DNA of 64,000 nt, from NCBI GenBank assembly GCA_051599415.1, contig AP039690.1, positions 434,001 through 498,000 on the forward strand, given 5' to 3'. The translations under genes were made by a program, and so were the position numbers. Positions 5,270 through 61,337 of this stretch are shown here, piece by piece. Numbering within the stretch: position 1 is the first letter of the stretch; each line of letters begins with the position of its first letter. This DNA comes from Savitreella phatthalungensis. Taxonomy: Eukaryota. The notes beneath the pieces are model-generated. The model was given only the letters and a program-made list of their open reading frames with translations, was not told the DNA's origin and did no database searches.

Positions 5270-6830
5270 CTCCTCCAATCCCTACACCAGGAGGTTCTGA
5301 AAGGACTAGATGGTTTTAACGGAAATTGATGAAGCTTCGAATGACGTATGGTTGCTGTAGAATGCTTCAGGTGTTTTGAAGAGTATTGCTTTGGTGAGTG
5401 ATCACATTGAACAATCTCGCAGGGAAACTGGAGATCAAATTCGACTGAAGACCGAGTTTAGAATGCCGCGGATAGATTGCGTTTAGATTGGTTGGATGTA
5501 AACACTGTCAACCTATACTCTTAACCTCCATGTATTTTCCAGGATAGACGAGGCCAGATTTCATTGACTTGATTTTGGTCGGCCGCTTGCGCTTGTTCCA
5601 AAAATAGACCAGCGGCTTCCAGTCATGGTCGAGAGGACGCATGGCTGAAACGCGTGAATTACATCGCGTTCTGCTCTGCGTGTCAAGTAGATAGATGATC
5701 TTGGGTCTCATTCGTACTAGGCTCTCGGAGATTTGAGGCATGCGGACCTGTGTATTAGGGGACCCATCGAGCTAGCTTTCTTCGATGTGAACGACTGAAG
5801 CATGAGCGAGAGACACGCACAGGTAAGTATGCAACAAGTCATTCATCCACTTCGGTCGTCTGTGCTGTTTGGCCCATTGCCAAATCACAGTCGAACGAGA
5901 CCAGATGAGATGAAATATGACATGAGATGATATGAGTTGAGATGAGAGTGAGACTGACAAGATTCCCTGCATCCAGTCGATCGTGTGGTCTGTCCCAGAC
6001 TATACAAGGTCTCTTCTCACGTCGATGATCTGATTCCCGACACCACGAGCATAGCAATGTACAAGATCACCGCGATCTTACGCGTCCATCACGTGGTACA
6101 CAAGCGTCTTCTCACATCGATCGCCCGTGCTCGTGTTCGTGCTTTCCAGATCGTGTGAGCAAGCTTGGTGCACCAACGCAGTGCAATCTGATTTCCGAAT
6201 CGGAGAGGCGGTGGGTTGTCTTCGCGTTAAAAGTCAGATACACAAGGATCCGAGCTAGAAACAAGGTAGCCTGGAGCAGTTCAGGAGAAAATCCAGAGGA
6301 ATTCTTTGGGAAAATAGAATTCGCCGATCTGCAGGAATACAATTCTATCCGTTCAAATGTATCTAAATTTAAACCGTAATAGAAGCACCACAGCAACAGC
6401 AAGGGCAACAGCAATAGCAGGACGAACAGCAACATGACTCGACATACGCATCCCAACACAGGCCACCTTCTCACCGCCATCCCAAATCCTCAGCAACGAG
6501 TCATAGCCTTGTCAATCATCACAATCTATACAGTCATTTGAACTGCAGCACTTCTCGTCGAATTGGCCTGCCCGACAAGACGTCCCTTCATAACAATCCA
6601 GGGCTCTTGGTCATCGCTTGTTCACGTGCGAGGTCCAGTGAGCCAACTGGGCTAGTGACGGAGGAGTGGCTCATAGGTGAGGGGCAGACTTGAATCGCAT
6701 TGCGCAAAGTCTCTCGCCCTTCTGGCCGCTCGCAGATCTCTGTTGCTCGCTGAAATCATTGAAGAAGTTCCCGACGTCAACATCTCCTGGCTCACGACCC
6801 CTTATTTTTCACCCTGATTCATCACACAAA

Positions 6831-8792
6831 ATGGCGAGCGACGACGGCAATAGCCACTATGGACTACCATCTCGCGTCCTCGCCGCCTTTCTCTCGCCTT
6901 GGTTTCTCCTCGTGGCCGCTGCGCTCATCCTCTTGCTCATGTATACTTTCTACTACAAGCCGAGATTACACCACGCATATCGCTCCTATCCTGATGCAGC
7001 CTACATCTACCTCACGCCACCAATCATCAGAAGGCGTAGATTCAATCGCGATCCGGTGGAATATCTCCGAAAGACTCGCGTAGACATGGCCATGTCGAAC
7101 ATCTACTGGCTCGACAGCATTGGCGATTATGGCATGTGTACACTCATCACCCAGTCAGACGCCCTCATTCACCAATTTCTAGCTACAGACAGCAAAGACG
7201 GTGTTTCATGGGATGCAGCGCTCAGGCACGTCTGGCGCGACCTATTCCGACCAGACTCGCCCTTCGGCAGGCGTTCTCAGTTCTACTACGCCTCTCGCTG
7301 GTGTCTTGTCAATGGCTTCTCTCGCGAGAAGACCAGTCTCGTCTCGAGCTATAGCGCAACAGTCGAGCGTGAAGCACTGCGCTGCTTGCACAATGCTAGC
7401 AACCAGGACGACCTGCTCGAGCTCGCTGATAGCGCAGTCTCTCGCTCTCTTCTGGCCATTATCTTTGGCACAGATTGTCAGCAATTCGAAAAACTAGCCA
7501 GCATCCTCGACAGCCTCAATCACTTGCTCGTTCGCACATCATCCAGATCCGATAGGAAGACCGCCATCCAGCTCGCCGATGAGTTCCGAGCCACGGTGCG
7601 CAGCCTCTTGCAAAATCAGATGAACAGCGATGTCGAAGCCCGAAGCGGTGGTGTAGGCGATGATTACCTCAGCTGGCTCCTGACAAATACACCGCAGATG
7701 CGTCAGGATGAGGACGGCAGGTCCAACGCAAACAGCCACAGCAATAATAACAGCGAGGCGGGAGGTAGTGACAGGGGCAGCAACACGATAGACGACAATG
7801 ACGAGGTGGAAAAGACTCGGCGTGAGCAACACCTTCTGCGCGATCTGCCAGATCATCTGCTTGTGACACTGCTGCAGACGCGGTTGCTCTGCGCGGTTGG
7901 TGTGCTTTGGAACGTCTACTCCGCCGCAACACTGGAGAACGCGGTCTCGCCTGACCCACTCTTGCTTGTTCGCAAGGCTCGGAAAGAGGTCCTGATTGGA
8001 TCGACCATCATTCCAAAGAATGCCTTTGTCGCCGTATCACCCGTGCTCGAGCGGCTCGAGGGAGGATACGAAGGCACCTCATCGGGATATCCTCGGGGCT
8101 CGACACCCGCCTCATCTATGCTCTTCTTCAACAATGGCCATTCACACAGCAATCCAAAGCGTGATCTCAGCTCTACAACAGAGCTTTCCCTGCTTACCTC
8201 GACGAACAGCTTGAATGATCTGACGCAGACAAGCGATACAGCAAGCACGGTTGATGGCTCTGCATTTGCATCTGTCAACCACTCTCGAAGCACCTCTTCC
8301 TTCGCTCCACTCCTCCGTCACAATCACTCGCGAAGGCAGTCGTCCGTCGCGGGTTTGTCGGAGATGGGCGGGCCTACGATTTCCGAAGCGGATTCCGCAG
8401 CCGACAGTGCCTTTGGCATTCCGAACGGTAGTCGCTCAGGCAGTCTTAGCGACGTTGACGAGCGGCACTACCGGTCAAAGCGAGGGTCTTGGACGCGACG
8501 CTACCCACAGGCGCATCTGATCTCCTTGGTCGTTGGTGCCGTCTCGACTCGGTTCTCGGATGCCTTGACCATCACCGGTTCTGCAAGCGTCCATCCGCGA
8601 TACCTTAGCGCTCGGGGTCTCTGGCTGCCTTTGCCGGACACCACCATCGCATGTGTCCGCCGCACGTCAAACAGTTCTCATGCTCCTCCGCGCCCAACGA
8701 GATCCTTGACGCCACCTGCCCCTGCAGCTGACCTGACAGGTCCCAACCCTAGCAACAAATCTGCAATCGTGGTAGCTGCGGTGGACGCATGA
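6831..8792 (+). CDS. Membrane-anchored, degenerate cytochrome P450-like (CYP51-like) protein lacking catalytic motifs
   Basis: N-terminal TM anchor, DPVEYLRK..NIYWL segment and LLVRKARKEVLIGSTIIPKNAFVAVSP (P450 beta-sheet-like). No K-helix ExxR and no FxxGxxxCxG heme motif; Ser-rich insertions. Confidence 0.55.
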   Translation: MASDDGNSHYGLPSRVLAAFLSPWFLLVAAALILLLMYTFYYKPRLHHAYRSYPDAAYIYLTPPIIRRRRFNRDPVEYLRKTRVDMAMSNIYWLDSIGDYGMCTLITQSDALIHQFLATDSKDGVSWDAALRHVWRDLFRPDSPFGRRSQFYYASRWCLVNGFSREKTSLVSSYSATVEREALRCLHNASNQDDLLELADSAVSRSLLAIIFGTDCQQFEKLASILDSLNHLLVRTSSRSDRKTAIQLADEFRATVRSLLQNQMNSDVEARSGGVGDDYLSWLLTNTPQMRQDEDGRSNANSHSNNNSEAGGSDRGSNTIDDNDEVEKTRREQHLLRDLPDHLLVTLLQTRLLCAVGVLWNVYSAATLENAVSPDPLLLVRKARKEVLIGSTIIPKNAFVAVSPVLERLEGGYEGTSSGYPRGSTPASSMLFFNNGHSHSNPKRDLSSTTELSLLTSTNSLNDLTQTSDTASTVDGSAFASVNHSRSTSSFAPLLRHNHSRRQSSVAGLSEMGGPTISEADSAADSAFGIPNGSRSGSLSDVDERHYRSKRGSWTRRYPQAHLISLVVGAVSTRFSDALTITGSASVHPRYLSARGLWLPLPDTTIACVRRTSNSSHAPPRPTRSLTPPAPAADLTGPNPSNKSAIVVAAVDA

Positions 8793-15755: not shown

Positions 15756-17318
15756 TTAGACCGTCTCGATATACCGTGCTACTTCCCATTCCGTGACTGC
15801 CTGCTGCCAGAGCTTGAGCTCGTGGTGCCTGGTTGCTGCGTAGTGATTGACAAAGCCGTCACCAAAGATCTCTCTGGCGATCGACCCTTCACGCGCAAAT
15901 AGCCCAACGGCCTCCCTCAAATCCTTCGCCAGCCGAATCGATCCCGGACGCGACCCCGGATCGCCCTTGTGACCGAGCGGTGGCAAATCAATCTTCAACT
16001 TCATCTCGATACCTCGTAGTCCTGCGCCGAAGATGGCTGCGAGAGCGAGGTGTGGGACGGTGTCTGCGCCTGGAACGCGGACTTCGATTCTGGTTGCCTT
16101 TTTGGCGGTTGCTGGGTCGTTTGCTGGGGAGATGAGTCTGAGTGATGCGAGTCTGTGCTCGAGTCCCCAGGAGACGTCGACTGGCGCCCAGAAGTTCTCG
16201 ACAAGGCGCTTGTACGAGTTGATGGTCGGTGCAAAGACCGGCATCAAGTCAGGCAGACCAGCGAGCACGCCAGCGAGGAAGTGTCGTCCTACTGCGGAAA
16301 AGTTCTCGAGATCTTTGTAGTGAATCCCACCGACCACAGTCGCCTCGTCCAACGCCTTCTCCTCGGCATCGCCAGATGACCTGTCACGGTAGAAAAGGTT
16401 GGATCCGCCTGTCAACGAGGCTAGTGAGACATGCATGTGTCCTGAGTTGCCACTGAGCCCTTGGACCGGTTTTGCCATGAAGCTCGGAGTTACGCCGTGC
16501 TGGAGACCCACGTTCTTGCACAGGAACTTGAACATCGCTCCGCGGTCGGCCATCCGCTCTAGCTCACAGAACGCGAGAGCGCCCTCGTACACACCGGGAC
16601 CAGTCTCCGTGTGCCAGCCCTCGAGAGGACAGTCAAAGAGCATAGCACACTTGTGAATGTCATTGAAGTACTTGCGGTACTTTACGTCGTGGATCCGCGC
16701 AAGTGAGTAACCAAAGTTGCCCGGCGTGATTGGTGTTAGGTCACGCCCGCGCTTCTCAGCCAGCGTCTGTGGTGTTTCTGCGAAGTTGAAGAACTCGTAC
16801 TCGAGTCCGGCCATGCCCTTGAAGCCGAGCTTGGTAGCCCGATTTGCTTGCCTCCGAAGGACGCTGCGCGGGTCAGCTGAGATCGGTTCCCCGGTAGACG
16901 GGTCATTGAAGTGGAGGAGGAAGAAGGGAGTGTTGTCGTCCCAGGGCAACCTGCGGAAGGTGGACAGATCGATCGTAGCGTCAATGTCTGCGAAACCGTT
17001 CGGTCCATCTGAGGTCGGACCTGCACCCATGGCTGCGATCACGCCTTCGTCGTACGTCTTGTCGTGCATATCCCAGCCAAACGTCACACTGCAGAATCCG
17101 AACGAGCCGCTTTTCAGCGCAGACTTGAATTTATCAAACGACATCAACTTTCCACGCACGATCCCATCGACATCCAAACCACCGACCTTGACGCCAGTCT
17201 GTTGAGCACCTCGATGCTCGAGCCAGGCAACTATGGCGTCTATTTGATGTGCTGTCGGAGGGTTGTCCGATGTTGGGGGATCATCCGTACCATTGGGAAC
17301 GGCAAAGACGCTTGCCAT
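15756..17318 (-). CDS. Glutamine-synthetase-like gamma-glutamyl-amine ligase (GlnA4/PuuA-like)
   Basis: DVDGIVRGK, GLEYEF, HTETGPGVYE, FMAKP..GNSGHMHVSL, APTINSYKRL and RIEVRVPGAD. The canonical GSI FDGSS and PGYEAP are replaced by FCSVT and ENFWAP. Confidence 0.9.
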   Translation of the reverse strand: MASVFAVPNGTDDPPTSDNPPTAHQIDAIVAWLEHRGAQQTGVKVGGLDVDGIVRGKLMSFDKFKSALKSGSFGFCSVTFGWDMHDKTYDEGVIAAMGAGPTSDGPNGFADIDATIDLSTFRRLPWDDNTPFFLLHFNDPSTGEPISADPRSVLRRQANRATKLGFKGMAGLEYEFFNFAETPQTLAEKRGRDLTPITPGNFGYSLARIHDVKYRKYFNDIHKCAMLFDCPLEGWHTETGPGVYEGALAFCELERMADRGAMFKFLCKNVGLQHGVTPSFMAKPVQGLSGNSGHMHVSLASLTGGSNLFYRDRSSGDAEEKALDEATVVGGIHYKDLENFSAVGRHFLAGVLAGLPDLMPVFAPTINSYKRLVENFWAPVDVSWGLEHRLASLRLISPANDPATAKKATRIEVRVPGADTVPHLALAAIFGAGLRGIEMKLKIDLPPLGHKGDPGSRPGSIRLAKDLREAVGLFAREGSIAREIFGDGFVNHYAATRHHELKLWQQAVTEWEVARYIETV

Positions 17319-19095
17319 GATCAGAGTCTTCTGAGAGAGGACACTTTGCTGCAGCTCGTTCGCAGTCTTGTAGCTACTGTAGACGAATGGGACAGCTTCG
17401 TGTATCTTACTGATGTATACTTCATGTGGTTATGACTCTTACGTCGGGCGAGTGGGCGGGCGGGATGTTTCCTCCCGGCTCCACGAAATGGTCAAGTGAT
17501 TCAGAGGCGAGATAAGCTTGGGTTATCAAACGTACGTGTTGGTGGTATCATATCAGGTATTCGTCAGTTGGAAAATGCATCAGTCTCTGACTTACGTGCA
17601 TATGAGGATAAACTAAATTTAAATTTGATCTGTTTTGCTCACTCGTCTGATATCAAATCAAAGTTCAAATACTGTAGCTTGCTTCTAAGCTGCAATGCGT
17701 GCATCCTGAGCGGTCGATTGGAAGATGCAATTGGCATACGGCCGCGGCTACTCCATTCAATCATCGAGTGCACGTGCAAATACAGTTGAGTGAACCGCAA
17801 TTGTGTGTGACCTGCAGCTCTGAAGCACATACATTTAGTAAATGCACGGGAATGCCGCGAATCATTGATGCCACAAACAATCAGCAGCGGAGTCTTTGCG
17901 CGCATTGATGGTGAAGCAGAAGAGTTGAATCAGTAGCCAACGAGAACAGATGGAAGACTGCACTCATAAGCAATGTATCTTGCTTGGCTCCTAATTGGAC
18001 GAACCACAGCGCCCGGCGCATTTGTTCCGCCTGCAGCACATATGTTGAATACTGCTTTCTCCTCGAAGTAGCGTCTCGTGCTACACGAGCTGACTTCGTA
18101 GTGCGGTTTGGATTAGATACTCCCACCTGCCTCTGGATCTTATCCTGACCCCCGCGAGCCCCTGAAGCCTCTCATTAGTCACGATTCACGGCCTGGCGGG
18201 TCTCAGTTGGTGGGGTGCGGTGATCGTGTGACCGCTAGGTAGATCGACTCAATCAGAATTTGCTGCTCGAGCTGCATAGAACTGTACGTATGACCTCATT
18301 TGTCCACCTTTGCTGAGCTGTGAGCTTTGTATTCGGTGTCTAGCCCAGCAGGAAGGATTATTTCGTCCTGGTTCTGCAACGTGCTACCGCATTTTTTCAG
18401 CACATTGCATACTGGTCTTTAGCGACCTCTCCGTGCGTATTGGTCTCTAGCGGCCTCTACGTACCTCTCTCTGTCTAAAGCGCGCAGTTCCAAGGTAAGT
18501 CAACGTCTATCATTGGAAATCAGGACGATTGGTTGCGTCTCTCAATGCTGTACTTACGCTAGCCTTATACGAGTGATTAGTTAATGAACACGATCGACTG
18601 CTGTGTACATTGAATGAGCACACAGCATATGGATGGCTTTCATACGCTTGACCCTCGCGAGGTAGAAGCATGGCATATACGAGCTTGCCATCAGGTTGAA
18701 GCGCGTCAGTTTGGCGATTCGATGATCGTGTGACTCCAAGATGGGTTGAGTCAATTCAATGTTTTGCATCCCAGTCATCATCTCATTCGTTCATTTCGTT
18801 TGAAGTGTGGTTGCTAAGTCCAGGAGTCAGGATCATCTCCAGGCTGTGGAAGGTGCAATGGTCTCTATCACATGCGATTACGAGATTCCTGGGAAATTGC
18901 TAAAGCCACTCGTCTGCATGCAGCTGCAGCGGATTTGTAGTCGAGTGGCGGTAGACGATCTTCTAACAAGCATAGAATTCCACACCTGTGGACAGCTGAG
19001 GCGATAACGAGCCCCATTCACCTCACCAGCTCTTCCGACGCACACATGCAGGATAGACTTGTCGTCGTATAAATGTCCTAACCCTGTCCTAGCAA

Positions 19096-20298
19096 ATGAC
19101 AGAAAGAAGCGCAGGAGAAGAAGAAAAAGAAGAAGTCATGACTAAAACCATACGCGTAAGTGAAGTATATGGATTTCGACGTGTAGCGCTAAAAGAACTT
19201 CTATAGGAAAGAGACACCGCAACTGGTCATGTTCCCAGACAGACTCATGGACAACAGCAGGAGCAATCACAAGAAGAACGACCGCAACAGGAATCGCAAC
19301 AGGGAGTTCGAACGCGCGAACAAGATGAGCTCTGGACTTTCGTTACTTTTTTGACCCTCGCAGGCGGATTGCTTGCCGTGGTCGTGACAGAAACAGATCA
19401 CATGGTCAGGATCCAGCTTGCGAGCCTCTCATGCTGTTCGCTCTGGATATTTATCCAATACGAAAGGGTATGGACTTTACGCCCTGTTCGCTATGCACTA
19501 GCGATCGTCGTCACCGCCAGCTTGGGCGGAGTCATCTTGATCTTTGTTGTTTTGCCACGGTACATCTTCCTGGGCATCGTACAGTACTTTACCGGCGTGC
19601 TTCACTACTCTTCAACCTTCGACCTACATTTTTTCCTCTTCGTGAGGTTTTGCTTTGCGATATTCGGTCCGTCGCAGAGCGCGGAACGAAAGACGCGCAA
19701 GTGCAATATGGAACTCTTTGGCACGTTTGAGCTAATCCTCGATGAAGGTACTCCGCGTGTCACGGGCATTCCAGGCGCATGGAGATTGACGGCTATGCAA
19801 ATCACTCATCTAGATTGGCCGGCACTGTGGGCTGTACTTGTCGGTTGCCCGGAACGAAACTTCTCCAGCGCCACATGGCGCTACCTGGCTTCCTTAGGTC
19901 GACGAGCGCGAGAAGTTCGACTATCAGTCTCCCGAGAAAATCGAAGCGAGAGAAAGAGGGAAGTCGCGCTCACTGTGGAGGCTCCCGGGTCAGCTGGAGG
20001 TGGAACTGAGCGAGCAGCATCGCAATTGGTCCAGGAAGAGTTCGTCGATACTTTCGAGATGATTGAGCAGTTGGCTGGCCAGGTTGCGACGAGTAACGGG
20101 TTCTGCATATTCATCCGAAATTCGTTGGGCAGCCAAGCGCTACCACAGTTCCAGCCGGGCGATTTCGACCTCTTGAGAAGCGACCTTCCTGTCCTGCTTC
20201 ATGTTTGCTCGTCTGCTGACTACGTCGGCCCTGTGAGCGATCTGGGCATGTTTGCCGTTCCTGCGGACTTCTTCGTCACCTGGGCGGCAAGTCTATAG
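19096..20298 (+). CDS. Orphan multi-pass membrane protein; 2 exons: 19096-19155, 19207-20298
   Basis: ATG at 19096 and intron GTAAGT(19156)..GCTAA..TAG(19206) join in frame to the 315-aa ORF. Gln/Glu-rich N-terminus followed by several hydrophobic segments; related to the ORFs at 20.8-21.45 kb. Confidence 0.55.
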
Positions 20299-20538
20299 TC
20301 GAGGTCAATGACCTCCAACGATCATTACGTACGTGTTCGTATTCCAATGAGTTCATCCAGTCTAGTCTGATGTACTTGCATCGCATCCTCGAGCTCGGTA
20401 ACTCTGGATAGGATGACTGATTGCAATGTCCTGCATTTCACCGTGCACTATCAAATTCTTCTGCCGCACTCATGACACGACAATTTTGAGCTCCTTGCGA
20501 TGCAGCGTCTCTCACATACATCACATGAGCCGCTCACC

Positions 20539-20750
20539 AGTCTACATCGCTATGTGGACGAGCATCACGCTTCGTATGCCTCCGTCATCAAGTGTCCTAT
20601 TAGCACAGGCAGCTGTCGGATCCAAGGCTCTTAGATGACAGCCAGCTGGAAGGAGTTGCGATCGACGATCCGCGCAATCGGACTGGGCAGATCGATCGAG
20701 ATTCCAAGATCTGAAAGAGGTTGATCTCTAAATCACTTGTGCGCGAAGTG
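20539..20750 (+). repeat. Diverged direct repeat, copy A (partner at 21469-21680)
   Basis: Shared blocks such as catcgc.at.tggacga..atcacgcttcgt, gtcatcaagtgtcct, atcgacgatccgcgcaatc and tctaaatca.ttgtgcgc. Confidence 0.9.
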
Positions 20751-20854
20751 TATGGATCTCGACGTGGAGCACCAACAGAGCTTTCAATAGCGAGAGGGCA
20801 TTAAAACTGGCGATGTCCGCAGACAGCAAGAAACACCGCGAGATCAATCGTTTC

Positions 20855-21434
20855 AAATCGGTCGCATGCAGAAGATCATTCTGGAGTTTCGTGACTTTCG
20901 CCATCGCTATCGGCAGTGGAGTCACGGGACTCTGGACCCGGTCGAAAGTCACGGTCATGTATGCGATTGCGAGCCTGCCAGGCATTCTGCTCTTTTTGCT
21001 CATCCGATGGGACAGGATGCTGGGTTCTCCGATTCTTGGCTATTTGCGAGTCAGCATTGCCACTGTCGTCTTGGGCATGGTTGTCTCTGTCATCTTGGTC
21101 TTTGTTGGGAAAGTGGAGGTCGAAGGCTGATGAGTCGAGCTCGGCAGTGATGTTCGTTTCGACGCTCCGATCGATGTACCGTGGCAGAACAACGAAGATA
21201 AAAACGACCACGGCCAAGACGACAGTGGCAATGATGGCTCGCAAATAGCCTAGAATCGGAGAACCCAGCATCCTGTCCCATCGGATGAGCAAAAAGAGCA
21301 GAATGCCTGGCAGGCTCGCAATCGCATACATGACCGTGACTTTCGTCCCGGTCCAGAGTGCCGTGATGGCACCGCCGACAGCGATGGCGGAAGCGACGAA
21401 ACTCCAGGATCGATCTTCTGCATGCGACTGATTT
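20855..21434. repeat. Long inverted repeat: arms ~20855-21074 and 21214-21434, spacer ~139 nt
   Basis: 20943-21036 is the exact reverse complement of 21252-21345 (94 bp). The flanking arm sequence is similar, with substitutions and one 1-nt indel. Confidence 0.97.
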
Positions 21435-21454
21435 CCCTGTGACAATTGTTGCAA
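20876..21454 (-). pseudogene. Paralogous fragment(s) of the orphan membrane-protein gene on both arms of the inverted repeat (minus ORF 21454-20876; plus ORF 20813-21130)
   Basis: The minus ORF has WSFV...IFVVLPRYIDRSVETNITAELDSSAFDLHF versus WTFV...IFVVLPRYIFLGIVQYFTGVLHYSSTFDLHF in the 19096 gene. It starts at a non-ATG codon, and the arms differ by a frameshift. Confidence 0.5.
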
Positions 21455-21468
21455 CCTTGACGCTCTCT

Positions 21469-21680
21469 AGTTCACATCGCAATATGGACGAAGATCACGC
21501 TTCGTTTGCCTCTGTCATCAAGTGTCCTGCGTACCACAGAGAGCTGCCGGAGTCAAGATTCTCAAATGAAAGCCTGCTGGCTCGAGTTGCAATCGACGAT
21601 CCGCGCAATCCGACTGGTCAGATCAATCGAGATTTGAGATCTGGAAGAGGTCGAACTCTAAATCAATTGTGCGCAAGGTG
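21469..21680 (+). repeat. Diverged direct repeat, copy A'
   Basis: Colinear with 20539-20750 in the same orientation. Confidence 0.9.
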
Positions 21681-21876
21681 GGGCTCCTCCAAAATTCTCC
21701 GGTATTAAAGATGGTGCGAATGGATAATTTATATGAGTACTTTTATTAAGAACTGATCGAGTGCTACAAATACCGATGATCAGCACGTCCGCCGGTGGTC
21801 TACGTCGATGATGTCGAGGTCTGAATGGAAGATTCCCGCGAAGGACAATGTTAATGTAGCTAATGTCATGAGTGAA

Positions 21877-23298
21877 TCATCTCTCCACATCTGATGGAAC
21901 AGCGGCGAATAACGTAATCTTTGGTCGTCGTCCGCTTCTCTTCCAGTAGCTGTTTAGTTCGTCGCATTTGCCTTCACAACCGTAACACCGATCCACTTCT
22001 GAAAAATCTTCTTCTGTTGGATGCTTGAACAACCAATCTCCGAGTTCATCATTCATGATTGACCGGCTGTAAGTAGCCTTGTAAACAGTGTGTTCGGCAA
22101 AGGGCTCCGATTCAATTGCCTGATAGCGCATGACCCCCTGGCTGAGACTGCTGATGTCGTCGTTCGCCAGGAGGAATCGGCTAGCATGCAATCTGTAAAT
22201 TTTCCGAGTCTCGTACATATCCTCGGGGAACTCGACGATCTCGCTCGAGCGACCTGATCTTAAATCGGTTGAGGTTACAGGTACTGAAGCAACTGTCGTC
22301 GGAAAATCTGGGTCGACGAGATACACAGTTGATTCATACGATGGCGGCAAAGCTCCATCCTCAGCGTCCGAAAGACCACCATCGTGTAATCGTCTCGCGC
22401 AAAGGTAATAGCTGATGTCGCTTTGACAGGCCCATATCTCCGTAGCCCCCCTAATCCTCGCCATATCGAGCCAGGAAGCGTACCCGAAAGCGACCGCAGC
22501 CTGACGCTGCAGGCAGTCTTCCATTTTTTGTACTTTGAGACAGACGGATTTGTCCAATGGCGAAAGAACTTGTCCTGCACAGGAACCTGGTTCCGTACCA
22601 TCAGCATTCGTTGTTGATACGCTGACCTGCGCCGAGACGAAAGAACCTTTGATCGAGGCCTCTGGCAGCAGAATACCAATGAGCTGCGTCTGCCAGGGTG
22701 TGGCTGAGGAGGCCTGCGAGAGCGGCGAATGAATTGGTTCGAGATCCCTGTTCACGTAGCCTGACACGCCTTCGGTGTGGGACTCGATGCATGGTTCGCT
22801 GCGTAATTCCAGTTCAGTTCGTGTGAGCTTTGCCACCAGCCGACGACCTTGTTCTTGAAAGAGACAAACCTCGATCGGTTGTTCAGAGTCTGGACGTGGA
22901 CCATCTTCGGCCGCAGTCAACTCGAGCTCCGTCAAGCGCTCCTTCGAGCGTTCATATCGCTCCCGCCGGTCCGTTGTCATCAAGGGCCATACCGTCGAAA
23001 TCACGGTAATTTTGCCGATGTCGACCAGGTTTCCAATACTGCGATCATCCGGCCTCAGAATTTGCCCATGGTGAAAGTCTCGCCGAGGGCTCGTGTCTTT
23101 CGCAGGATCCCATAGTATTCGCCGTACATTAATCCTGAGGCTAGTCGTCGCAGACTTGTCGGAGGTTGCCAGAATGGCACCGAGCCTCGCGCTGACCGCA
23201 AAGTGAAATCCACGCAATTGCAGCGGTAATGGCACGTTGTTACCTGTGCTCAGGATCACATAGTCGCCGTCGCATAATTGTACCATCAATTTCCCCAT
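21877..23298 (-). CDS. Hypothetical orphan protein (~470 aa)
   Basis: Long uninterrupted ORF; first ATG at 23298, true start uncertain. No family recognised; C-terminal CYGCEGKC. Confidence 0.6.
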   Translation of the reverse strand: MGKLMVQLCDGDYVILSTGNNVPLPLQLRGFHFAVSARLGAILATSDKSATTSLRINVRRILWDPAKDTSPRRDFHHGQILRPDDRSIGNLVDIGKITVISTVWPLMTTDRRERYERSKERLTELELTAAEDGPRPDSEQPIEVCLFQEQGRRLVAKLTRTELELRSEPCIESHTEGVSGYVNRDLEPIHSPLSQASSATPWQTQLIGILLPEASIKGSFVSAQVSVSTTNADGTEPGSCAGQVLSPLDKSVCLKVQKMEDCLQRQAAVAFGYASWLDMARIRGATEIWACQSDISYYLCARRLHDGGLSDAEDGALPPSYESTVYLVDPDFPTTVASVPVTSTDLRSGRSSEIVEFPEDMYETRKIYRLHASRFLLANDDISSLSQGVMRYQAIESEPFAEHTVYKATYSRSIMNDELGDWLFKHPTEEDFSEVDRCYGCEGKCDELNSYWKRSGRRPKITLFAAVPSDVER

Positions 23299-23715
23299 CG
23301 GCGGCAATGTGTATGATAGTCCACGGTCTTGTTGATTACAGATAAAGTGTGCAAAGCAGTTAGCGGACTATGCTTTCAAGAGGACGAAAACATAGTCACG
23401 AAGTAGCGAAAGCAAATGAGAAATCGACGACCGGCATATTTTGCAGCTTGCTGACTGATGTCATAAGTGCGGTTCATTTTGCTTCAAATGGGTGGATGCG
23501 GTGGGTTTTAGCGAAGATCATGCAAATAACCGTTGAAAGCTTTGCTGGTTGTCGAGAAGCTCGGTTCGGACAGACATGCAATGGGCATTTGCAAACGAAT
23601 GAGCGGGGCAGTCCGGGTAGATATGCATGGCGCTGTCCATTTGCATATGTTGTATGAGAATGATATGTGTAGGACCAGATTTTGGGTCTGTTCTCCGCAT
23701 CTTGCAGCTAGAAGC

Positions 23716-25341
23716 TCACTGCAGCATACCGGCGACGGTCATCGAGATGCCATCGACTTCCGCGCGTTCTCGTGCTTCAGCGTATACTCTCACGCACGGT
23801 TCGGTTCCTGAGGGTCGGACGAATACTCTGGTCTCCTTGTACTTGGAACACAGCTCGTCGATTTTGTCTTGAATGCCCGGCGGTGAAATGAGCTTCCGCT
23901 CGGCGTCAGTGGTCTTGTAGATCGTCGGGTCAGCGACCACAACTCGGACTAGACGATTTGGTAGGTCCTTGTAGCACCCATCCCACTCATCAAGACCCCA
24001 GCCTTTGTTGGCCAAGATGACCTCGACGAGCAGCAGATCAGACAATGCGTCCCCGACGGTCTGGTTGATGAGGTCGACGAGTGCTCGGAGGGCGTCAAGC
24101 GCGGACTGCTGAGCTGGTGATTGCGCTTCGTGCGCCTGCAAGAGGGCGAGAGTCGAGTGAGAGAACAAGACGGTGCCGTGGCCGTTTGCCTCGAAGTAGA
24201 CGCCGACATCGAATCGCTGAGCAGCGTGGTGGAGATGCTTGACTCCAGTAGGCGTGCACGTGACCGGAACGCCGAGCGTCTTCTCGAGGTAGCTCGTGCT
24301 CGACCCGTTGGCATAAGCCGTCTGGACTACGCCGACGTTGATGTCAAGCCCACACTGCGCAATCAGATCCTTCAGGAACATTGCAGCCAGTGTAGCGATC
24401 TTGTCCCCGTCCAGCAAGTGAAACTTGCCATCTTTGCCATCTCCAGAAGGGTCGGTGTAGTAGTATACCAGCCGATCTGCATCTCCGTCGAACGATGCAC
24501 AACGTGCGCCAGCAGGTGCACTCGACGAGAGTGGTTGTCGTTGCTGTGTCTTGACAAAGTCTGCACCGCAGTCACGGTTTAATTTGGCTGGGTCATCAAT
24601 GTCGTCGTTGACAATCTCTAAAGAAAGCACATCGTCCCCGAGCACACGCTTGAATTCCCGAAGTTTCGGCGCGCCAACGCCATTTGCAGAGTCGACGTAG
24701 ACTTTGCTCGCTCTCGGCTTGCCCTTCATCAACGCATGGAAGGCAGCCGCCAGCTTCTCATAGTAGCCTTTTTCCGTTGGCTCGCCGTATGAGGCCGGTG
24801 TGTTCTCTGTATTGACGCATCGGACAAGATAGTGCAGTTGCGGAGTTGTCTTGAGGCCAAAATCTTTGGACGATGCATCCAACGCATTCAGGCCATCTTT
24901 CAGAGCTACTGCTAGCGATTTTGACGACGGTCGTGTATCTACTGCATAGATGACATTCGCCTCGACTGCTTCGATGTCGATCTTGTGTCGTTCAACAACA
25001 TGCTGGAGTGCATGGATTACAGCGTCATCATCCTGGGCATTTGCGAGTGCAGTGGCGTAGGCCTCCCAAGACTGCTCCATCATATCACCTTGAGGATCGA
25101 CAATTTTGACGCCATTGTCTTCTGCCGGATTGTGTGAAGCTGTGATCATGACGCCAATGACTTGTCCATGAAGCTTTTTGGATCTCAGTGCAGCAAGCAA
25201 GCCGACCCGGAAGACGACACTGTCTAGAAGGGAGGCTTTTGTGCGGAATCCAGCTGTACCGTACGCGAATGTAGTCCCCTTAGGCTTGGCGTGAGCAGAA
25301 GAAGCAGCCTTAACCTTTTCGTGCCATGCATCAGATGTCAT
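23716..25341 (-). CDS. PCM1: Phosphoacetylglucosamine mutase
   Basis: YGTAGFR, TASHNP (catalytic Ser), DGDADR, YFEANGHG and FVRPSGTE; ATG at 25341. Confidence 0.96.
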   Translation of the reverse strand: MTSDAWHEKVKAASSAHAKPKGTTFAYGTAGFRTKASLLDSVVFRVGLLAALRSKKLHGQVIGVMITASHNPAEDNGVKIVDPQGDMMEQSWEAYATALANAQDDDAVIHALQHVVERHKIDIEAVEANVIYAVDTRPSSKSLAVALKDGLNALDASSKDFGLKTTPQLHYLVRCVNTENTPASYGEPTEKGYYEKLAAAFHALMKGKPRASKVYVDSANGVGAPKLREFKRVLGDDVLSLEIVNDDIDDPAKLNRDCGADFVKTQQRQPLSSSAPAGARCASFDGDADRLVYYYTDPSGDGKDGKFHLLDGDKIATLAAMFLKDLIAQCGLDINVGVVQTAYANGSSTSYLEKTLGVPVTCTPTGVKHLHHAAQRFDVGVYFEANGHGTVLFSHSTLALLQAHEAQSPAQQSALDALRALVDLINQTVGDALSDLLLVEVILANKGWGLDEWDGCYKDLPNRLVRVVVADPTIYKTTDAERKLISPPGIQDKIDELCSKYKETRVFVRPSGTEPCVRVYAEARERAEVDGISMTVAGMLQ

Positions 25342-26131
25342 TTTGGGTGGATATAAGACTTCGCGGAGCCTCAGAAGTCTACTGATAGTGTATAAAGGGA
25401 GGAGAAAGAAGGAAGCAGGCTTAAGAGGACCGACTGAGTGGGTTTCGATCAATCGTAATGTGGTAACCGAGGTCAGATGATGTCAGATGATGTTCGGTCT
25501 TGACCGAGTCTGTGCGTATCGAGTACAAAAGCGTATCGAAGCTTCCGATGAATGATCTAGATAGAAGCTGGGATCTGACTGTCTGAGAATGAGGCTGAGG
25601 ATGAGGTTGAGGACGAGGTTGTTGTTGGGGTTACAGTCTACCTTGTGGGATGGGGCTGATTTGTGTTATCTGTGCATATTGGCATGTATCCAACGTCAGA
25701 TGCATGCATGTGATTAAATTTGATTTTGACCTTCAATGCAATCAATCATTCATTCATTCATTCATCGATCATTCACTTTCAACTCTCTTGTCGACAACAC
25801 ATCAACATATATCCACATATACTGCATGTATATCCACACATCCACGTCAACGTCAACATCAACATCTGCAGCACGGTTGAGTCAGCCTTAGCGACTACTT
25901 CTACCACTCTTTGAAGGTCACGCTCATTCCTACGCAGTTAATAAGAGTCTTTGGTAGTGGTATTGCATCAATCATCAACTCTATCACAGTTGGGTCAAGT
26001 ACCTAAAGCAAAGGCACGTCTGGTCAACTCATCAGCCTAGCGTGCAACGCAAATAAGCACTGCTGCAACTTCTTCTCCATTCAACGATCAGAACGAGCAC
26101 ATTGGATTCGACCTTAACACGCTGAGTTATC

Positions 26132-42109: not shown

Positions 42110-42360
42110 AGCTGATGACCTTTCTAGAGGCTTAGATTCCAGTGTTCTGTACTCAGAGATTGAGCCCTGTCTATGGAGCGAGCATACTCGAGGTCTTGCG
42201 CTTGATCTGACTACTGGCTTTCTGTCTCTCGTCTGTCCGCTTATCCTGTGAGACAATAATTCTTGAACCTCTCTCCACACACAAGCAAGACGATCAAAGA
42301 AGAAAAATTACACACTACTCGCCTTCCTCTCTACACACATCCTCTTCTACACTAATATCC

Positions 42361-43182
42361 ATGCTGCCAAGACGGTACCTCGGAAGCTCTCTTCGGGCGA
42401 CGCTTTCTCGCGCTTCGACTCGGCTATGTGCTTCGCCTGCTCTACAGCCGTCTGATGGTTGCGCTGTGGCACGGGTACGTGTATCTGGGACGCAGACTTT
42501 TGGTCGCGGGATGGGATACCGAGCTCGGGAGGCTGATGGTGCGGTCAAGCCGTCTCGGCAGTTGGATCGAGCGCCATCGGATGCAGGTGCTGCTCACCGG
42601 CTGATGGAAGCAGGTGCCGGGTACTTGGTCGCTGAAGGGTCGCGCAAGGGACACTTGCCATCGACTGCGTCCGTCAGGACGGACTTGCCTAGTGGTGGCG
42701 CTCAGGGACAGTTGTTTGACGATGTGCTTGTGCTACAGATTCTCACGCACAAGTCGCTCGATCACGGCAGGCAGCCGTACAACGAAAAGCTCGCGATGCT
42801 TGGTGGACAGCTGTGTAGGCTGTGTTTGGCGTCTGAGTTGATGAGGTCGTCGCCTGAGATGCTGGCTGATGAAGGCGCGATGGAGGCGATTGAGAAGGGT
42901 TCAAGTGCTTGGGCGCTTGGCGGTCTCGCGGATGTTGTCCTTCCTGGAGTCAGGCCGCTGCTTCGATGGAAGCCGAGGGCCGAAGGCAATATTCTGCGTT
43001 CCGGTGAGCGCAAAGTCGCTGGAAACGCCGTCGCAGCGCTTGTAGGTGCCCTCGATCTCAGGTACGGGACCGTTGTCGCTAGAAAATTCGTCGAGGACAA
43101 GCTCGTTGCGCTCCTCGTCACAGAGATGCGGCAACAGCAACAGGAACAGAAACCGGCACAAGCACAAGCATCAGCAGTATAG
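42361..43182 (+). CDS. MRPL15: Mitochondrial large-subunit ribosomal protein with RNase III-like domain (mL57/MrpL15)
   Basis: Arg/Ser-rich presequence-like N-terminus; LTHKSLDHGRQPYNEKLAMLG, LRWKPR...SGE and ALVGAL.L.YG..VA. Confidence 0.8.
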   Translation: MLPRRYLGSSLRATLSRASTRLCASPALQPSDGCAVARVRVSGTQTFGRGMGYRAREADGAVKPSRQLDRAPSDAGAAHRLMEAGAGYLVAEGSRKGHLPSTASVRTDLPSGGAQGQLFDDVLVLQILTHKSLDHGRQPYNEKLAMLGGQLCRLCLASELMRSSPEMLADEGAMEAIEKGSSAWALGGLADVVLPGVRPLLRWKPRAEGNILRSGERKVAGNAVAALVGALDLRYGTVVARKFVEDKLVALLVTEMRQQQQEQKPAQAQASAV

Positions 43183-61024: not shown

Positions 61025-61117
61025 AAGAAGAAGAAGAAGAAGAAGAAGAAGAAGAAGAAGAAGAAGAAGAAGAAGAAGAAGAAGAAGAAGAAGAAGAAGA
61101 AGAAGAAGAAGAAGAAG
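61025..61117. repeat. (AAG)31 trinucleotide microsatellite
   Basis: Perfect AAG run of 93 nt. Confidence 0.98.
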
Positions 61118-61337
61118 AGGAAGATCAAGCTGTCCTCTGATTGTAGAACTGTCGACCAACGAGATCCTCTCCCATCTGTCTCTCCCTCTGACTCTCTCTC
61201 TGTCTTTACCCTCTTCACTCTCTACTCACTCTGATCCCTACTCTGTGTCCGTGTCGAATCCAGACTGTGATTCAATCTGATCAGGGTCTAGCCTAAATCT
61301 AGTGCAGTCCAGACTATTCTCATGACGCTTTTCATCG

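Follow-up and report, generated by a model that had tools for sequence, protein, structure and literature searches.

The inverted repeat at 20855-21434 of the window (the whole 64,000-nt stretch that was analysed) is real, and consists of two decayed copies of an orphan membrane-protein gene in opposite orientations. No intact gene of this assembly is a close target of the repeat, and taken alone the hairpin is probably a scar. Long inverted repeats of the same gene family were found at two further loci, and three separate hairpins hint at repeated silencing of the family. The explanation that we favour, at about even confidence, is recurrent fold-back duplication with homogenisation of the arms, now acting at most in cis. 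The source genome is that of Savitreella phatthalungensis, a leaf yeast of the Taphrinales (assembly of 12.7 Mb in 27 contigs).

The features of the locus are listed below.

19138..20298, plus strand: gene A1, an intact orphan that encodes a membrane protein of 369 aa (annotated protein P0001)
20531..21105, plus strand: decayed A copy, frameshifted and truncated at ~21105, comprising the upstream segment, an intron-like stretch and 5' coding sequence (self-BLAST, translations)
20855..21102, plus strand: left arm (repeat and gapped arm alignment)
20876..21331, minus strand: 151-aa ORF called by the annotator, P0020 (annotation; profile search)
20943..21036, plus strand: perfect 94-bp core of the left arm, homogenised tract (self-BLAST; permutation, 5/200,000)
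21103..21184, minus strand: loop, the inverted A copy continuing past the end of the plus-strand copy; junction at ~21105 (self-BLAST; X3 contig)
21185..21434, minus strand: right arm, second decayed A copy, inverted, frame still open (self-BLAST, alignments, translations)
21252..21345, minus strand: perfect 94-bp core of the right arm (self-BLAST)
21461..21680, plus strand: upstream segment belonging to the second copy; repeats 20531-20750 in direct orientation at 81% (repeat search, self-BLAST)
21877..23298, minus strand: gene B1 (P0022; 473 aa), an orphan whose soluble product is predicted to be beta-rich and has a conserved (L/P)PxY motif (annotation, paralogue searches, model)

Geometry and fold of the inverted repeat

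The initial annotation had described arms of ~220 bp around a spacer of ~139 nt. The arm length held for the ungapped block (222 nt, 20878-21099 / 21189-21410, 89% complementary, separated by 89 nt), but the gapped arms were ~250 bp long (20855-21102 / 21185-21434, with 27 differences in 250 columns, 89% identical) and the loop was ~82 nt. The perfect core of 94 bp was recovered by self-BLAST at exactly the positions first reported, 20943-21036 / 21252-21345.

When the 27 arm differences were shuffled, a run of at least 94 arose in 5 of 200,000 trials, and the flanks outside the core were 83% identical. The core is thus beyond chance and is a homogenised tract; the initial annotation had read the perfect core within diverged arms as a sign of gene conversion or of selection for pairing.

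The predicted RNA fold had an energy of -471 kcal/mol (z -27.6), which none of 20 shuffles equalled; the duplex is very stable, in agreement with the long dsRNA anticipated earlier. Either strand folded, with ~92% of the bases paired. The arm differences comprised 7 wobbles on the plus strand and 6 on the minus strand, with 12 transversions. As noted before, there was no clear G:U bias. Rfam gave no match in the window at 17000-26000.

Origin from the gene A family

A1 has an intron at 19156-19206, and P0001 splices MTKTIR onto the frame 19207-20298. The product, annotated as a hypothetical protein of S. phatthalungensis, has a Q-rich N-terminus, hydrophobic segments and a C-terminal domain common to the paralogues at the C9 and C2 loci. 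Both arms and the loop were coding sequence of the A1 family, at 59-63% DNA identity, which upheld the view that the arms came from an orphan membrane-protein gene with a relative upstream (A1, 19138-20298).

Self-BLAST aligned 20745-20826 with 19162-19242, tying the decayed plus-strand copy to the start of A1, and 21110-21239 with 19500-19632 on the minus strand, which identified the loop as inverted A sequence. The left arm lay within the frameshifted plus-strand copy (20531-21105), and the right arm and the entire loop lay within the inverted copy (21434-21106). The 3' half was missing from both copies. The direct repeat at 21461-21680 was oriented opposite to its own coding part, and contained a 74-codon ORF starting at 21484. 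The similar identities of this repeat (81%) and the flanks (83%) suggested a similar age.

Outside the core, the copies differed by pN 0.18 and pS 0.15 over 41 codons; within it there were no changes in 30 codons. Judged from these codons, the A copies diverged without visible protein constraint and were then homogenised. Protein-level constraint was rejected as the cause of the core, which had no synonymous changes at 23 sites and lay in a frameshifted left copy. P0020 crosses from one arm to the other: its frame leaves the right arm, and its second half is left-arm antisense. This 151-aa ORF is therefore probably no real protein.

In a search for relatives of A1 outside this genome, only A1 itself was found among 8000 candidates, a blank that is not proof of absence. 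The A profile retrieved only the window's own two proteins, apart from one fibronectin-repeat-like match (7e-5), which was rejected as an A homologue because it was a match of composition. The Atlas had nothing for A1 or B1, and the core 24-mer was absent from metagenome contigs; neither blank is proof of absence. The model of the A C-terminal part had a pLDDT of 49, and a structure search with it gave no match at Z of at least 5.

Elsewhere in the window, the 1.7 kb upstream of A1 (17430-19100) was gene-free and contained two copies of a 36-nt repeat, 75% alike, one at 18218 and the other at 18720, and a pure (GAA)n run of ~30 units lay at 61027-61118.

Confirmation of the junction by an independent contig

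The contigs of run X1, from which the assembly may itself derive, were broken as expected of an exact 94-bp repeat. Run X3, from a separate study, supplied one 230-nt contig (20956-21185, depth 2.3) that spanned the inversion junction at ~21105 with no differences and left the right arm uncovered. We concluded that the inverted repeat is real.

This contig over the core and junction differed at 0 of 230 positions, versus 69 of 1987 across seven other listed contigs (of 13), a weak hint of constraint; three of the 13 contigs were at least 99% alike. Over 17000-26000, X3 represented a related strain, ~3.5% divergent at 2-3x depth.

Run X2 came from the same sample as X1 and was taken, by guess, to be DNA. 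From their depths (2.8-193) and their ends close to gene ends, its contigs look like RNA. None of them covered 20839-21290. No weight was given to this gap, because RNA-seq signal falls over hairpin arms for technical reasons, as described in the available text of PMC10317233. The contigs of X5 were short PGM3-like pieces only.

Gene B and the four A/B loci

The right arm and the stop of B1 are 443 nt apart. Three different queries gave the same result for B, namely four copies in the genome, every one beside an A or A-like gene. A1, A2 (C9) and A3 (C2) were homologous in leave-one-out HMM searches (E 1.7e-6, 4.2e-19 and 5.4e-10 among 8490 segments). The A-like gene at C17 is a hydrophobic 5' fragment that the A profile failed to detect; its membership of the family is unproven, and was proposed from position, hydrophobicity and a short motif. 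A1 and B1 are tail to tail, and the A/B pairs at the other loci are head to head.

The (L/P)PxY motif occupied one aligned position in all four B proteins, which are 29-31% identical to one another; the background was 12 of 131 chunks of 350 aa. No homology was found between A and B. Scans for B in metagenomes and viruses were blank, which is not proof of absence. Foldseek gave no match for the B fold at E 0.001, and PDB gave no sequence match. The B model had a pLDDT of 51. Compared with the arrestin beta-sandwich fold, as for an arrestin-like adaptor, it gave a best match at Z 7.4 (rmsd 6.5, 161 aligned), a score that numerous beta sandwiches of unrelated proteins equalled. CA-rich, hexamer-like tandem repeats were seen between head-to-head A and B at two loci (L032:5621-5733 and L033:5750-5888).

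Recurrent hairpins at A/B loci

Three of the four A/B loci (the one in the window, C17 and C9) each carried a long inverted repeat, made of the A or A-like sequence of that locus. The two others are as follows.

L031:5232-5512 / 5558-5838: C17 hairpin, 281 nt, 87%, 45-nt loop, ~340 nt when gapped
L032:8113-8378 / 8475-8740: C9 hairpin, 265/266 identical, 96-nt loop

These two family-derived hairpins strengthened the earlier idea of a hairpin suppressor. The C17 hairpin region (L031:5172-5893; G000:C17:241171-241892) stands head to head with a B paralogue, and no intact parent gene was found. The C9 region (L032:6130-9139; G000:C9:467129-470138) holds A2, which is intact, and after it several partial copies lying in either direction and the hairpin, which is built from the 3' half of an A gene. 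The fourth locus had no hairpin within ~29 kb around it.

Such an inverted repeat was found in none of 20 scattered 10-kb control stretches, versus three of four A/B loci (Fisher p 0.002). With the discovery locus removed, the count was two of three (p 0.012). The controls covered scattered stretches, with other tandem orphan-gene islands outside their coverage.

The three hairpins shared a geometry, with arms of 250-340 bp and loops of 45-96 nt. They had no DNA similarity to one another, and the C9 hairpin came from the 3' half of the gene, so they arose separately. None was made from B sequence. The arms were 99.6% identical at C9, 89% in the window and 85-87% at C17. Wobbles per strand numbered 7/6 in the window, 14/8 at C17 (p 0.29) and 0/1 at C9, and none showed a clear bias. 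At C17, a 107-bp run would be wholly paired on the plus strand if G:U is allowed; the longest perfect run was 44, a weak signal, reached in 1032 of 20,000 permutations.

Targets of the hairpins

No 21-mer of the left arm (0/228) or the right arm (0/230) came under 4 mismatches to intact A1, and the core 21-mers had at least 6 each. Matches to A1 down to 1 mismatch arose only when the unpaired loop was counted. The search for closer targets that had been proposed returned this locus alone in the genome. Because every stem 21-mer had at least 4 mismatches to A1 and the DNA search matched this locus only, the assembly contains no intact gene that would be a close target of the window hairpin. The suggestion that it could silence present family members was not borne out.

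The C9 hairpin was closer to its neighbour, with 70 of 246 left-arm 21-mers within 2 mismatches of intact A2. Its loop was 89/93 identical to A2, and the stem was ~71% identical. This suggested that the stem was not tuned to the target. Neither the C17 nor the C9 hairpin had genome matches outside its own locus. Two of the three hairpins, those of the window and C17, have no close target in this genome.

RNAi machinery in the genome

The initial annotation had called for a check for Dicer and Argonaute. An intact Argonaute was found, but no canonical Dicer.

The single Argonaute gene (G000:C4, L009:3565-6420, minus strand; 918 aa) was intact, with all six domains. It carried D-E-D-D at the catalytic positions when aligned with human AGO2, and it is predicted from this to be slicer-competent. 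Its best named matches were from Pezizomycotina, mostly Dothideomycete QDE-2-like proteins at ~40%, and no named Taphrinomycotina protein appeared among the 120 matches listed. Remodelling or transfer of RNAi is possible in this genome. Around the gene (L009:3-1049 and 7025-8410) were a polyprenyl synthase, a GMC-type oxidoreductase (our reading) and a dehydroquinate-synthase-like gene.

The profile of the Dicer dimerisation domain (PF03368), run without a positive control, had no match in the genome. RNase III profiles found two and three single domains in the genome, none within a Dicer. Plant and fish Dicer queries, with none from fungi, matched only helicases, of which the best was Mph1/FANCM-like (our reading), and the Rnt1-type gene. 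A search of the genome for RdRP, also without a positive control, gave no candidates. Loss of canonical Dicer and RdRP is likely and not proven, because no fungal Dicer query was included and the completeness of the assembly is not given.

A Pac1/Rnt1-type RNase III was present, with an intact signature motif and one dsRBD hit. Two further RNase III domains resembled mitochondrial ribosomal proteins and were mL44/MRPL15-like; the RNase III-like protein at 42211-43182 (plus strand) of the window is probably MRPL15. A Spo11-type domain was also detected in the genome.

One PAZ domain was found, that of the Argonaute. This count was left out of the argument on Dicer, because in 86.7% of fungal Dicers no PAZ can be detected, according to the part of PMC12663654 available. 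Taphrina deformans is described in PMC4159005, as far as its available text goes, as having both Dicer and Argonaute.

Discussion

The fold-back explanation begins with local duplication of A in an unstable island of two genes. Two copies fused tail to tail and lost their 3' halves, one copy continuing as the loop, as the sequence shows. The copies diverged by ~17-19% without evident protein constraint. The observed 94-bp tract may then have been reset to identity when the adjacent arms underwent conversion or a template switch. A fold-back event of this kind occurred independently at the two other A/B loci.

A transcript across both arms would fold to a 250-bp duplex, and the single Pac1/Rnt1-type RNase III would cut it, thereby ending and destroying the transcript. 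Here we infer both transcription through the hairpin and the cleavage, by analogy with fission-yeast Pac1. The intact A1 message, being only ~60% identical, cannot be sliced by way of the window hairpin.

Template switching homogenises inverted arms in yeast, likewise leaving a perfect tract inside diverged arms; the cases in the available part of PMC8604942 had arms of 7-16 bp and spacers up to 70 bp, unlike the 94-bp tract in 250-bp arms here, for which the direction of homogenisation cannot be polarised. No relative carrying the two arms turned up in X3 or in the metagenome scans. Pac1 cleaves stems of at least 20 nt and terminates transcription, and its natural sites as described in the available part of PMC8421224 are short stems, unlike the 250-bp window duplex. 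A duplex of at least 20 bp and an RNase III with the signature are nevertheless features of a putative Pac1/Rnt1 cleavage site.

In favour of the fold-back explanation we counted the loop of inverted A coding sequence, the lack of a clear wobble bias and the confinement of matches to the window hairpin's own locus. Against it, three of four loci versus none of 20 controls would be hard to obtain by accident alone, and two of the three hairpins have persisted to 11-15% divergence. The X3 core contig (0/230 versus 69/1987, with 3/13 contigs at least 99% alike), the retention of an intact Argonaute and the 70 of 246 C9 21-mers within 2 mismatches of A2 also count against it.

Part of this contrary evidence would fit hairpins selected as RNA suppressors of a harmful or selfish A, silencing local A through RNase III and Argonaute. 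We hold this tentatively, as possible rather than probable. A would be a membrane poison, and B a linked antidote recruiting Rsp5/NEDD4-type ligases by its PY motif. The window hairpin would be a relic, its close target decayed or segregating in other strains; the C9 hairpin would be young, with its target remaining. Besides the excess at 3/4 loci over 0/20 controls, the origins of the three hairpins were separate, given their mutual lack of DNA similarity, and all came from A or A-like sequence and none from B. The (L/P)PxY motif is kept at one aligned position in 4/4 B proteins at 29-31% identity (background 12/131 chunks), and PY motifs define the wtf antidotes in the available text of PMC10721834. 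Driver-derived suppressors formed by inverted duplication are described in PMC12941216, suppression of a Neurospora spore killer by RNAi in PMC8092558, single-domain Dicers of budding yeasts in PMC3579876 and PMC5751038, and a single-RNase-III Dicer of Candida in the first of these, each for the portion available. The genome also has an Argonaute with D-E-D-D aligned to human AGO2, and a Spo11-type domain. On the other side, canonical Dicer and RdRP were not found in the genome, two of the three hairpins lack a close target in it, and there is no clear wobble bias. The RNase III has one dsRBD hit versus two in the S. castellii Dicer (PMC3579876, available part). The A profile missed the C17 gene, which was placed in the family by its position, its hydrophobicity and one short motif. 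The tail-to-tail arrangement of A1 and B1 also differs from the head-to-head one at the other loci. The role in poisoning or drive would be by analogy, and ascospores were not observed in culture in the available account of Savitreella (PMC8877625). The fuller version, a new two-gene poison-antidote family (A the poison, B the PY antidote) answered three times by A-fragment hairpins, with the Pac1/Rnt1-type RNase III processing them in place of a canonical Dicer and the QDE-2-like Argonaute taking up the products, we consider rather unlikely. That the hairpin was selected as a cis terminator or insulator, an RNase III site halting read-through between a convergent A-copy promoter and B1 with arm identity kept for it, seems improbable. 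The window hairpin does lie between convergent units, 443 nt from the B1 stop, either strand folds (~92% paired) and Pac1 offers a precedent (PMC8421224), but Pac1 requires ~20-37 bp in the available text of that source, not 250, and neither at C17 nor at C9 does the hairpin lie downstream of B. The long inverted arms and short loop would also suit a fold-back transposon or MITE, and the C9 repeat, 265/266 identical and known from assembly alone, an assembly artefact. We regard these origins as very improbable: the arms are protein-coding sequence of a neighbouring gene, each hairpin is confined to a single locus in the genome with no similarity among the three, the window arms differ at 27 positions, and the junction is bridged by a contig of an independent study (X3).

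The locus is built like the Drosophila hairpin-RNA loci (Nmy, Tmy, hp58), and we do not file it as one. In the available text of PMC10317233 and PMC12941216, those are inverted repeats from part of a lineage-specific gene, born beside or near the parent gene and repeatedly within one family. They are transcribed, Dcr-2-dependent and fully complementary to their targets, whereas the Savitreella locus is known from sequence alone. Two tested features are missing here: a close target of the window hairpin, and a canonical Dicer, for which the searches of the genome gave nothing.

The A/B genes resemble the wtf genes of Schizosaccharomyces, of the same subphylum, in that their membrane proteins are orphan and diverge fast, their loci are dispersed and include decayed copies, and a PY motif is present. 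As described in the available part of PMC10721834, one wtf gene makes both products, and the wtf suppressors are antidote-only genes; in Savitreella the PY motif is on the separate soluble protein B, and the candidate suppressors are hairpins. Unlike wtf, A/B are at four loci only, and kinship to drivers would be an analogy. No WTF family was among the Pfam hits (E up to 1) for eight A and B proteins.

As with Pac1/Rnt1 and Candida Dcr1 in the available accounts (PMC8421224, PMC3579876), there is just one candidate for cutting double strands, an RNase III of a single domain that bears the signature motif, and Argonaute is kept. In the published literature searched, mostly non-subscription, no paper was found on the A/B genes or such hairpins in Taphrinales, and the pairing of A and B with recurrent hairpins appears new to it.

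If the hairpins recur by neutral events, the locus is a clear case of an orphan-gene island that folds back time after time, with a false gene call over a hairpin. If the recurrence reflects selection, it would offer a small and tractable example, in a fungus, of suppressors that derive from the very genes they silence. The three hairpins differ in age (arm identity 99.6%, 89% and 85-87%), and A and B would be a new candidate pair of selfish genes. The seeming retention of Argonaute without canonical Dicer or RdRP would allow a test of whether a Pac1/Rnt1-type enzyme feeds Argonaute outside the budding yeasts. Were the poison-antidote reading true, fungi would have their own equivalent of the hairpin-RNA arms race seen in Drosophila, with a second, independent Dicer-free route to RNAi.
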